DNA of 19,186 nucleotides from a virus, in the UHGV virus genome UHGV-1604764. One strand, 5' to 3'. The number at the start of each line of letters is the position of its first letter. Position 1 is the stretch's first letter. The position numbers were made by a program, and so were the translations under genes. This document shows, in pieces, positions 745-4,404 of this stretch. The notes under the pieces were generated by a model, which did no database searches, was not told the DNA's origin, and saw only the letters and a list, made by a program, of their open reading frames with translations.

Positions 745-1239
745 ATGGCTGGAACGGCGGGGCGTTCCGGGCGTCGCCCCAAGCCAACGGCGCGCAAGGC
801 GCTGGCCGGAAACCCCGGCAAGCGAGCCCTGAACAAAGATGAACCTGTTTTTACGCCCATCAAAGGTGTTGAGCCACCAGAGTGGTTCGCTGAAGAAGAT
901 CTCCCTCTCGCCACGATCATGTGGCAACTGACAACCAAAGAACTCTGCGGTCAGGGCCTGTTGTGCGTGACTGACCTCGCGGTGCTTGAGCGGTGGTGCG
1001 TGGCCTATGAGTTCTGGCGACGTGCCGTGAAAAATATTGCCATACAGGGCAACACCATCACCGGTGCAATGGGCGGCAGGGTCAAAAATCCGGAGCTGAC
1101 CGCCAAAAAAGAACAGGAGTCCGAGATGAGCAGCACGGGGGCAATGCTCGGACTCGACCCCAGCAGCCGCCAGCGTCTGATTGGCCTGGCGGGGCAGAAG
1201 AAAGCCACTAACCCGTTTCTGAAAATCATCGAGTCATGA
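745..1239 (+). CDS. Terminase small subunit (P27 family-like)
   Basis: Start moved from the ORF-track GTG (736) to ATG 745, which has AGGAG at 732-736. N-terminus [14 protein letters not shown]...GNPGKR is typical of P27-type TerS. Stop overlaps the TerL start (ATGA). Confidence 0.8.
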
Positions 1240-2969
1240 GCCGGAAATCTTACCCCAACGTAAATGCTGCCAATCAGTATGCCCGTGATGTTGTGCGCGG
1301 AAAGATTGTGGCCTGCCAGTTTGTGATTCAGGCCTGCCAGCGCCATCTTGATGACCTGATGGCGGAAAAAAGTAAGTCGTTTCGTTACCGCTTCGACAAG
1401 GACCTGGCTGAACGGGCCGCCAAATTTATTCAGCTGTTGCCGCACACCAAGGGTGAGTGGGCATTCAAGAGGATGCCCATCACGCTGGAGCCGTGGCAGC
1501 TATTTGTGGTCTGCTGTGCGTTTGGCTGGGTCAATAAAGGGTCCCGGCTGCGCCGCTTCCGGGAGGTGTATACCGAAATCCCCCGTAAGAACGGCAAATC
1601 GGCAATCTCTGCCGGTGTTGCCCTGTATTGTTTTGCCTGTGATAACGAGTTTGGCGCGGAAGTGTATTCCGGTGCCACGACAGAGAAACAGGCGTGGGAA
1701 GTCTTTCGCCCGGCGCGACTGATGTGTAAACGCACACCCATGCTGACGGAAGCGTTCGGGATTGAGGTTAACGCCTCAAACATGAATCGTCCGGAGGATG
1801 GCGCGCGGTTTGAACCGCTGATCGGTAACCCCGGTGATGGTTCATCACCCCACTGTGCGGTGGTGGATGAATATCACGAGCACGCCACCGATGCGCTTTA
1901 CACCACGATGCTTACCGGGATGGGGGCGCGACGTCAGCCACTGATGTGGGCCATTACTACTGCCGGGTACAACATTGAGGGGCCGTGCTACGACAAGCGA
2001 AGGGAAGTTATCGAGATGCTCAACGGGTCGGTACCCAACGATGAACTGTTCGGGATCATCTATACCGTTGACGAAGGCGATGACTGGACCGACCCGCAGG
2101 TGCTGGAAAAAGCTAACCCGAATATTGGCGTGTCGGTTTATCGCGAATTTTTGTTAAGTCAGCAGCAGCGTGCGAAAAATAACGCCCGTCTGGCAAACGT
2201 CTTTAAAACAAAACACCTCAATATCTGGGTGTCGGCGCGTTCGGCGTATTTCAACCTGGTGAGCTGGCAGAGCTGCGAGGATAAATCACTGACCCTTGAG
2301 CAGTTCGAGGGGCAGCCGTGCATTCTGGCCTTTGACCTGGCGCGTAAGCTGGATATGAACAGCATGGCGCGACTTTATACCCGCGAGATTGACGGTAAAA
2401 CGCATTACTACAGTGTGGCCCCGCGTTTCTGGGTACCGTATGACACGGTGTACAGCGTCGAGAAAAATGAAGATCGCCGGACAGCCGAACGCTTTCAGAA
2501 ATGGGTGGAAATGGGCGTCCTGACCGTTACCGATGGTGCAGAGGTGGATTATCGCTACATCCTCGAAGAGGCCAAAGCGGCGAACAAAATCAGCCCGGTC
2601 AGCGAGTCACCCATCGACCCCTTCGGGGCGACCGGGCTGTCACATGACCTTGCTGATGAAGACCTGAATCCCATCACCATCATTCAGAACTACACCAACA
2701 TGTCCGACCCGATGAAAGAGCTGGAAGCGGCAATTGAATCGGGGCGCTTTCATCATGATGGCAATCCCATCATGACCTGGTGTATCGGCAACGTGATCGG
2801 CAAAACCATTCCGGGTAACGATGATGTGGTGAAGCCCGTCAAAGAGCAGGCGGAAAACAAAATCGATGGTGCAGTTGCGCTGATTATGGCGGTTGGCAGA
2901 GCCATGCTGTATGAGAAAGAAGACACGCTGTCCGACCACATTGAGTCCTACGGGATCCGCTCGCTTTAA
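1236..2969 (+). CDS. Terminase large subunit
   Basis: 577 aa. Walker-A-like [10 protein letters not shown] and acidic ATPase motif (VVDEYHEH) in the N-terminal half, nuclease-like C-terminal half. Position between TerS and portal. Confidence 0.92.
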
Positions 2970-2980
2970 CTGAGGTAATT

Positions 2981-3163
2981 ATGATCATGCTGATTCTCGC
3001 GCCTCTGGTGGGCGTGCTGGGTGCGCTTTTGCTGGCGTATGGTGCCTGGCTGATTTATCCCCCGGCGGGGTTTGTTGTTGCCGGGGCGTTGTGCCTGTTC
3101 TGGTCGTGGCTGGTGGCGCGATATCTCGACCGTACACAGTCGTCTGTCGGCGGAGGTAAATAG
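2981..3163 (+). CDS. Small hydrophobic membrane protein (2 predicted TM helices), function unknown
   Basis: 60 aa ([26 protein letters not shown]...[17 protein letters not shown]). GAGG 5 nt upstream of ATG 2981. Stop TAG overlaps the portal GTG start (TAGTG), consistent with translational coupling. Confidence 0.55.
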
Positions 3164-4404
3164 TGTTCTTTTCGGGATTATTTCAACGAAAAAGTGACGC
3201 ACCGGTGACCACGCCAGCAGAGCTGGCGGATGCTATCGGTTTGTCCTACGACACCTATACCGGAAAGCAGATCAGCAGCCAGCGGGCCATGCGACTGACG
3301 GCGGTTTTTTCCTGTGTCAGGGTGCTGGCGGAGTCGGTCGGGATGTTGCCCTGCAATCTGTATCACCTGAACGGCAGCCTGAAGCAGAGAGCCACCGGCG
3401 AACGTCTGCATAAACTGATCTCCACGCATCCCAATGGCTATATGACGCCGCAGGAGTTCTGGGAGCTGGTGGTCACCTGTCTGTGCCTGAGGGGAAACTT
3501 TTACGCCTACAAAGTGAAAGCATTTGGCGAAGTGGCTGAACTGCTGCCCGTCGATCCCGGCTGTGTGGTACCGAAGCTTAACAGTAGCTGGGAACCGGTC
3601 TATCAGGTCACATTCCCGGATGGCTCCACGGATGTACTGAGCCAGGAGGATATCTGGCATGTGCGTACGCTGACGCTGGACGGACTGGTGGGGCTGAATC
3701 CCATCGCCTATGCCCGCGAGGCAATATCGCTGGCGGCAGCGACCGAAGAGCACGGGGCCAGACTGTTCAGCAATGGCGCGGTGACGTCGGGTGTTTTGCG
3801 TACAGAGCAGACGCTGTCGGATCAGGCTTATGAGCGCCTGAAGAAAGATTTTGAGGAGCGTCACACCGGGCTTGGCAATGCTCACCGCCCGATGATCCTT
3901 GAGATGGGGCTGGACTGGAAGTCGATGGCGTTGAACGCAGAGGACAGCCAGTTCCTGGAAACCCGCAAGTTTCAGCTTGAAGAAATTTGTCGTCTGTTCC
4001 GTGTGCCATTGCACATGGTGCAGAACACCGATCGCGCCACCTTCAACAATATCGAAGAGCTGGGGCTCGGATTTATCAACTATTCACTGGTGCCGTATCT
4101 GACCCGCATTGAGCAGCGGATCAACACCGGACTGGTACGAAAAAGTAAGCAGGGTGTTTATTACGCCAAATTTAACGCCGGGGCGTTACTGCGCGGGGAT
4201 ATGAAGTCCCGTTTTGAAGCCTACGCCACCGGGATTAACTGGGGAATTTACTCTCCCAATGACTGCCGCGACCTGGAAGATATGAATCCGCGTCCCGGTG
4301 GTGATGTCTATCTCACACCGATGAACATGACCACGAAACCCTCCGATGGCAGTAAAGCCGGTAAGCAGAAGGATAACGCCAATGCAGACGAAACAACGTC
4401 TTGA
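3163..4404 (+). CDS. Portal protein (HK97 family-like)
   Basis: 413 aa. GTG start with GGAGG 6 nt upstream. Size and position (after TerL, before protease and capsid) and overall sequence character fit HK97-type portals. Confidence 0.88.
   Translation: MFFSGLFQRKSDAPVTTPAELADAIGLSYDTYTGKQISSQRAMRLTAVFSCVRVLAESVGMLPCNLYHLNGSLKQRATGERLHKLISTHPNGYMTPQEFWELVVTCLCLRGNFYAYKVKAFGEVAELLPVDPGCVVPKLNSSWEPVYQVTFPDGSTDVLSQEDIWHVRTLTLDGLVGLNPIAYAREAISLAAATEEHGARLFSNGAVTSGVLRTEQTLSDQAYERLKKDFEERHTGLGNAHRPMILEMGLDWKSMALNAEDSQFLETRKFQLEEICRLFRVPLHMVQNTDRATFNNIEELGLGFINYSLVPYLTRIEQRINTGLVRKSKQGVYYAKFNAGALLRGDMKSRFEAYATGINWGIYSPNDCRDLEDMNPRPGGDVYLTPMNMTTKPSDGSKAGKQKDNANADETTS

Follow-up and report, generated by a model that had tools for sequence, protein, structure and literature searches.

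The ymfR gene of an HK97-type head module: a predicted small membrane hairpin linked to the portal gene

Why does a small gene for a hydrophobic, two-helix protein lie between the terminase large subunit (TerL) and portal genes of an HK97-like head module, and what might its product do there? HK97-like head assembly is usually told with three proteins (portal, protease and capsid), and the gene set from terminase to capsid is treated as complete. The locus that raises the question lies in a 19,186-nt stretch of viral DNA (UHGV virus genome UHGV-1604764), referred to here as the window, where the genes around the ORF encode an HNH endonuclease, TerS, TerL, an HK97-family portal, a prohead protease and a capsid protein. 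The original prediction, made from the sequence alone, considered a membrane protein unexpected at this position and offered two readings of it: a small accessory or exclusion-type protein, or a previously unnoticed morphogenesis factor.

The gene, its junctions and its predicted product

The ORF is not a discovery. It is ymfR, a known, named and uncharacterised gene of the E. coli K-12 prophage e14. Read from the sequence, it occupies positions 2981-3163 of the plus strand, with an ATG at 2981 followed by 60 codons and a TAG. The ORF itself, the Pfam assignments of its neighbours, its hydrophobicity and an AlphaFold2 model agree with the prediction of a gene for a 60-aa two-helix membrane protein between TerL and portal. 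The features of the locus are:

1236..2969, + strand: TerL gene, upstream neighbour (PF03354, PF20441), with its TAA stop at 2967-2969
2972..2976, + strand: GAGGT Shine-Dalgarno sequence of ymfR, about 4-5 nt 5' of the ATG
2981..3163, + strand: ymfR-type CDS, a PHROG 502 member (phrog_502; RefSeq 'ymfR: protein YmfR'), under purifying selection
2984..3052, + strand: predicted transmembrane helix 1, residues 2-24, Gly/Ala/Leu-rich, with G11, G14 and G21 conserved
3053..3070, + strand: tight turn I-Y-P-P-A-G, residues 25-30, predicted to face outward; the family signature
3071..3127, + strand: predicted transmembrane helix 2, residues 31-49, with G35, C38, L39, W41 and S42 conserved
3128..3160, + strand: C-terminal tail, residues 50-60, predicted cytoplasmic, evolving neutrally at the protein level except for the terminal G-G
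3152..3157, + strand: portal Shine-Dalgarno sequence GGAGGT, within YmfR codons 58-59
3161..3165, + strand: TAGTG stop/start overlap from ymfR to portal, G3163 being common to both
3163..4404, + strand: HK97-family portal gene, downstream neighbour (PF04860, 4e-108)

Eleven nucleotides separate the TerL stop from the ymfR ATG, and the GAGGT within them bears out the claim of a good ribosome binding site (RBS). A GAGG is retained at the same place in the enteric, Mangrovibacter, Citrobacter and Scandinavium loci. At the other end of the gene, the ymfR stop (TAG, 3161-3163) and the portal start (GTG, 3163-3165) share one base, the overlap that the original prediction had described. The C-terminal Gly58-Gly59 of YmfR is invariant because the portal Shine-Dalgarno sequence is encoded there. 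Sequence features of translational coupling are thus established on both sides of ymfR, within the late operon.

YmfR is strongly hydrophobic (GRAVY 1.22), with Kyte-Doolittle scores of 1.3-2.7 in 19-residue windows over residues 1-49. The AlphaFold2 model (mean pLDDT 75) consists of a helix at residues 2-25, a kink at Y26/P27 and a second helix at residues 27-56. Both ends of the protein are predicted to be cytoplasmic because lysine and arginine are concentrated in the flanks and almost absent from the loop: among 81 relatives, K+R per residue is 0.18 in the N flank, 0.02 (0.021) in the loop and 0.17 in the C flank. Topology prediction, a check proposed with the original prediction, describes a helix-kink-helix with both ends inside, and the hairpin fold and its orientation are to be read as predictions. 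The C-terminal charge of the window allele is weak (D50, R51 and K60). Four family members (P0151, P0165, P0172 and P0214) carry a tandem-duplicated hairpin, giving four predicted helices per chain, which suggests a functional unit that holds at least two hairpins side by side. These duplicated relatives, together with conserved small-residue faces, indicate that YmfR hairpins probably self-associate. We infer the membrane insertion and topology of YmfR, its oligomerisation and any contact that it makes with the portal.

The gene is common and has been annotated repeatedly. Over 801 bp spanning the gene, the window DNA is 97.5% identical to that of K-12, and at least 1,162 of 5,426 complete E. 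coli genomes carry the ymfR region, as counted by megablast matches to at least 80% of an 801-bp probe spanning the gene. The window protein is identical to its SfII orthologue (SfII_03), and e14 YmfR, SfII_03, ST64B Sb3 and the phiP27 gene share length, position and junctions, with no substantive difference among them. The label 'putative integral membrane protein' or 'membrane protein' is already attached to the gene in SfII, SfI, ST64B (Sb3), 118970_sal3 and phiP27, and the suggestion that it had gone unnoticed is not upheld. The SfIV copy has been left unannotated.

Database comparisons place YmfR in a family of membrane proteins. It matches phrog_502 ('membrane protein') over residues 1-55 (E = 2.5e-28), as do all 66 members of our family alignment (A2). 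No Pfam or NCBIfam model matched YmfR above threshold; two-helix DUFs of Pfam appeared below threshold (DUF1206 in 21 of the 66 members, best E = 0.002, and DUF2244). Among solved structures in the PDB, a profile search gave chance matches only (E = 0.03 or worse). Foldseek, run with the AlphaFold2 model against viral structures, returned only hairpins of uncharacterised proteins, all weaker than E = 0.001; with a fold as simple as a 60-aa hairpin, such a search is uninformative. We found no functional study in the literature on ymfR, its family, ST64B/SfV and phi105. The gene has been termed uncharacterised, and no phenotype was reported on its replacement in K-12 (PMC9145139). An SOS-inducing drug raises its mRNA by log2 4.5, along with the mRNAs of other lytic genes of e14 (PMC10012262).

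Conservation, selection and the wider family

The gene is real, and its hairpin core is under purifying selection. We examined 16 species-level genome loci spanning E. coli, Shigella, Mangrovibacter, Scandinavium, Citrobacter and Serratia, and 15 of them retain the whole architecture: the ORF, the RBS and the overlap with the portal start, in the form TAGTG, TAATG or TGATG. The sole exception (L012) is a frameshifted second copy in Shigella flexneri CP182557.1. Its product is 71 aa long and diverges past residue 27; the same genome holds an intact copy (L007). Many frameshifted or truncated ymfR-like variants are also present in the protein database (e.g. P0128, P0142 and P0153). The original prediction had named an unconserved ORF, or a TerL-portal spacing that varies without it, as grounds for doubting the gene; within the family neither was found.

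The substitution pattern, which had been proposed as a further check, is that of a translated gene. NG86 dN/dS ranges from 0.05 to 0.41 across all informative pairs. Among 15 enteric alleles, variable sites at the first, second and third codon positions number 25, 19 and 40. In the same alleles pN/pS is 0.29 for core codons 1-49 and 0.99 for tail codons 50-60, where Gly58 and Gly59 are the only invariant residues. The implication of a neutral tail and a constrained core is that selection acts on the membrane hairpin and not on the cytoplasmic tail.

Other explanations for the conserved stretch were considered and rejected. An antisense ORF (2966-3202, 78 aa) would vary most at its first codon position. 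As for an RNA element, the predicted folds of 2950-3090 and 3110-3215 do not exceed those of shuffled sequences in stability (z = -0.7 and -0.35). A terminator-like hairpin at 3057-3071, CCCCCGGCGGGG followed by a T-rich run, is a weak site that falls on the self-complementary P-P-A-G codons, within a CDS of the Q-antiterminated late operon. The 'putative rho-independent terminator' annotated in SfII (SfII 2370-2419, approximately window 2989-3038) likewise lies inside coding sequence of the late operon, and neither of these two hairpins is distinguishable in its fold from shuffled sequence.

YmfR belongs to a much wider family of hairpins. A profile search of 1.84 billion representative proteins (E <=0.001) returned 383 clusters at 50% identity, nearly all of 45-80 aa and sharing one common motif, with a few tandem four-helix duplications. 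The signature of the turn is W-x-[IVM]-Y-P-P-A-G-[FY], present in the window YmfR and constant from E. coli to Bacillus across 36-66% G+C. When IMG/VR viral contigs were scanned for the turn motif, 575 of the 581 matches were relatives. Members or positional equivalents occur in Vibrio K303, Ralstonia Dina, Pseudomonas PMG1/D3 (orf3), Azospirillum phage Cd and Klebsiella phages and, among phages of Gram-positive hosts, in the Bacillus phages phi105 (ORF24, arranged in the same way with ORF25) and rho14. The arrangement is independent of tail type: it is found in SfII/e14-type myoviruses and in the siphoviruses D3, phi105 and PY54. In PY54 (AJ564013.1, locus L227) an unannotated 65-aa member at 2295-2492 fills a 190-nt 'gap' between genes 2 (TerL) and 3 (portal), overlapping the end of TerL and sharing a base of its stop with the portal ATG.

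A more distant branch is seen in SfV (U82619.2, locus L002), which matches the window TerL to about position 2890 and then continues with a different portal and a remotely homologous hairpin, an unannotated 53-aa two-helix ORF at 2289-2450 between TerL and portal. The SfV ORF belongs to PHROG 7105. It matches phrog_502 (E = 5.7e-6), YmfR matches phrog_7105 (E = 0.022), and 24 of the 66 YmfR family members match phrog_7105. Like YmfR, the PHROG 7105 proteins (the SfV ORF, those of Klebsiella and Edwardsiella phages, and Dina) have two helices, here in 52-53 aa, and their genes overlap TerL and portal; they lack the Y-P-P-A-G turn, having L-Q-F-G-M-A-P-A in SfV, and accompany another portal lineage of 26% identity.

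Linkage to the portal gene

The ymfR family is obligately linked to the portal gene. Of the IMG/VR loci, 80 were kept and examined with TerL and portal HMMs, 77 of them with enough downstream DNA. An HK97-type portal lies downstream of the hairpin in all 77 testable viral loci and abuts it in 76. TerL lies upstream in 74 of 75 loci, sometimes with 355-1082 nt of extra genes between it and the hairpin, whereas extra genes never come between hairpin and portal in the 80 loci kept. A 1-nt stop/start overlap (TGATG, TAATG or TAGTG) joins hairpin to portal in 41 of 59 non-redundant viral loci, including lineages of 61-66% G+C.

The hairpin is inherited with the portal and not with TerL. Among 69 non-redundant loci, 95 pairs have hairpins that are at least 85% identical next to TerL C-termini that are less than 60% identical; no pair in the same 69 loci combines a similar hairpin with a dissimilar portal. 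We did not find this family-level coupling and co-inheritance, which extends over phages of Gram-negative and Gram-positive hosts, described elsewhere, and it is what the present analysis adds. The linkage could be partly mechanical, since the portal RBS lies in the small ORF.

How common is the arrangement among HK97-type portals as a whole? In a sample drawn with the portal motif KATFSNIE alone (120 loci, 92 usable), a family hairpin adjoins the portal in about 20 of the 92, an unrelated two-helix ORF in 4-5 and nothing in about 61; redundancy in the sample, and its restriction to part of the portal family, make 'a fifth' a rough figure. A membrane protein in the packaging and portal block is less unexpected than first supposed, being present in about 20 of these 92 loci, from Gram-negative and Gram-positive hosts. 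The hairpin is dispensable for the HK97-type portal family in general, because about 61 of the sampled loci do without it. In mEpX1 and RcapNL, which are HK97-like and lack the ORF, TerL is joined directly to portal.

The slot between TerL and portal can hold other genes. In Campylobacter phage CJIE4-5 (L024) a MazF toxin gene occupies it (817-1251). Small two-helix ORFs that show no similarity to the YmfR family lie directly 5' of HK97-type portals in L177 and L182 (viral contigs of 27-28% G+C), L216 and L181, and may represent independent acquisition of an analogous protein.

Portal N-termini are commonly hydrophobic and then basic, as in MFFSGLFQRKS (window 3163-3200), MAGLFGSLASGLRRR and MNLLKSIFRRKS (L025-L224). 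This segment looks amphipathic and possibly binds a membrane or a partner. We found no N-terminal motif specific to the portals of hairpin-bearing phages; the hydrophobic-basic N-terminus occurs in both groups.

What the hairpin might do

Tentatively, we prefer to see YmfR as a factor that acts late at the inner membrane, in connection with the portal or with procapsid initiation, by analogy with T4 gp40. On this proposal YmfR would be a small inner-membrane helical hairpin with cytoplasmic ends and an outward Y-P-P-A-G turn, and its synthesis, from the Q-antiterminated late transcript, would be confined to the lytic phase. Ribosomes would move from TerL into ymfR by way of the strong Shine-Dalgarno sequence, 11 nt past the TerL stop, and from ymfR into portal through the 1-nt overlap, the portal Shine-Dalgarno sequence lying within the last ymfR codons; given such passage through both junctions, synthesis of YmfR would parallel that of the portal protein in timing and amount. 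The membrane-embedded hairpin would be the part under selection and would probably self-associate. Because its gene is always attached to and inherited with the portal gene, YmfR would most likely work with the portal at the membrane, where it may provide a membrane-bound site at which portal rings nucleate or are chaperoned, and from which procapsids are thereby initiated. Since there are related phages that lack the gene, its product would assist without being indispensable.

The late position, the co-induction of ymfR mRNA in the SOS response and the strict portal linkage all fit an assembly role. Against it, the conserved residues lie in the membrane and in the outward turn, whereas the tail, which is best placed for contact with the portal, is neutral; most HK97-type phages lack the hairpin; nor does any portal feature track its presence. 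T4 gene 40 is not known to lie beside gene 20. T4 portal initiation at the inner membrane requires gp40, a viral chaperone and late membrane protein proposed to support procapsid assembly initiated by the portal (gp20) (PMC9958956). YmfR resembles gp40 in its predicted membrane location and its late expression; on the YmfR side, the proposed role comes from gene linkage only.

A broader version of the portal-linked reading is that the family is an unrecognised, widespread component of HK97-type head morphogenesis, either anchoring or nucleating portal rings at the cytoplasmic membrane, or being packaged by way of the portal and, on ejection, opening the recipient membrane; we regard it as doubtful. 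If true, it would mean that procapsid initiation is membrane-associated, as in T4, and not purely cytoplasmic, in about a fifth of these phages. A conserved hairpin whose gene is joined to the start of the portal gene and co-inherited with it from Proteobacteria to Bacillus suggests that, in a sizeable minority of phages, the accepted gene set lacks a member. For the window itself the result is an ordinary one; the coupling at the level of the family is a testable lead, and the inducible relatives SfII, phiP27, D3 and phi105 offer an easy genetic handle.

Superinfection exclusion, or another host-directed function, was one of the two readings first offered and is unlikely. An inner-membrane hairpin would here block DNA entry by related phages or modulate a host membrane protein. 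HK97 gp15, T4 Imm and P22 SieA are exclusion proteins that act in this way, and gp15, which Cumby et al. reportedly described in 2012 as a superinfection-exclusion moron, is a precedent for an exclusion gene with a fixed place in a structural operon. Both gp15 and YmfR are small inner-membrane proteins (in the case of YmfR, by prediction) encoded at a fixed place in the structural operon of an HK97-like phage. The two differ in that gp15 is encoded among the tail genes, is expressed independently in the lysogen and acts against DNA entry that depends on the tape measure. The conserved surface of YmfR is intramembrane, which would suit binding to the membrane-spanning parts of other proteins, and the category given to PHROG 502 is 'moron, auxiliary metabolic gene and host takeover'. 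YmfR nevertheless does not have the form of an autonomous moron: no promoter-like site for it was found on the plus strand between 2469 and 2981, and the overlap of its stop with the portal start leaves no space for a terminator. The ymfR transcript is induced alongside the lytic genes (PMC10012262), and replacement of the gene in K-12 had no reported phenotype (PMC9145139). PADLOC defence models gave no match for YmfR, the SfV ORF or P0157, and for P0169 one sub-threshold match (LeoBC, E = 0.067). The constant position beside the portal in phages of Proteobacteria and Bacillus is also unlike that of accessory genes, which are typically sporadic. Taken together, the missing promoter-like site and terminator room, the lytic mRNA pattern and the lack of a PADLOC match disfavour the accessory, moron-like idea.

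A lysis accessory is decidedly unlikely. YmfR would then act like a pinholin or antiholin, collapsing the membrane potential or adjusting when lysis occurs, with its dose set by translation of the late operon. The predicted protein does resemble class II holins and pinholins (e.g. S21 68) in size (50-75 aa), in its two helices with both ends inside, in a Gly/Ala-rich helix 1, a short turn and a basic C-terminal flank, and in late expression, which suits such a role. Weak matches to Phage_holin_3_6 (E = 0.09 (0.093)) were obtained for 2 of 66 members, but no holin family in Pfam or PHROGs was matched above threshold by any of the 66. The neighbourhood is also unlike that of a holin: the hairpin never adjoins an endolysin in the loci examined, being always beside the portal, and its host phages already have a holin, an endolysin and spanins. 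In SfII, for example, a complete S/R/Rz/Rz1 cassette maps about 35 kb from the gene; a Q antiterminator is also encoded elsewhere. Holins do not usually have a strictly conserved outward turn, and the Met1/Met3 pair of the window allele, which is not conserved (other alleles start MFL or MIL), further counts against the holin reading.

It is less probable again that YmfR is a virion ejection protein, with hairpins loaded through the portal into the procapsid, ejected with the DNA and inserted in the recipient cytoplasmic membrane to aid DNA crossing. Portal linkage and co-production with the portal, selection on a membrane-inserting hairpin and an arrangement that is independent of tail type would all suit such a protein. 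However, YmfR is so hydrophobic (GRAVY 1.22), and so devoid of amphipathic or soluble segments, that pulling it out of the membrane for packaging would be difficult. We found no virion proteomics that list YmfR, and the PDB profile search revealed no relative in any solved phage structure.

That the ORF is a translational relay only, in which delivery of ribosomes to the portal start matters and the peptide is incidental, is the least credible reading and very improbable. It would account for the portal Shine-Dalgarno sequence and start embedded in the 3' end of the ORF, for the Gly-Gly (explained at the nucleotide level) and for the neutral tail. It would not account for the hairpin core, in which amino acids are strongly conserved while synonymous sites turn over, nor for a single motif from E. 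coli to Bacillus at 36-66% G+C. RNA folds are not above shuffled stability, and phages without the ORF couple TerL directly to portal and therefore need no relay.

The analysis has consequences for annotation, the gene having been missed in SfV, SfIV and PY54 and mislabelled in other genomes. The annotated start of the SfV portal, GTG 2392, falls inside the hairpin ORF and is probably wrong because that ORF was missed; GTG 2440 is more likely, with AGGGGG ahead of it and a product beginning MLLDALFRSKS, which matches other portal N-termini. Several automatic annotations, among them those of ON470603.1, ON470584.1, ON470580.1 and PQ793804.1, label YmfR homologues 'head-tail joining protein W'. 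Lambda gpW is a soluble protein, and W lies between A and B in lambda; YmfR resembles it only in its map slot between the large terminase and portal genes. We rejected identity with gpW on the hydrophobicity of YmfR, its two membrane helices and PHROG matches that are to membrane and unknown families only, and the label looks like a positional mis-annotation taken from lambda. Two records of apparent Firmicute origin, OR844959.1 ('Enterococcus phage Efm 3-10', 1764 bp) and JAEWTL010000102.1 ('MAG: Bacillota bacterium', L004), are 96-100% identical to the E. coli/Shigella prophage region and probably reflect contamination or mis-binning rather than true Firmicute sequence.
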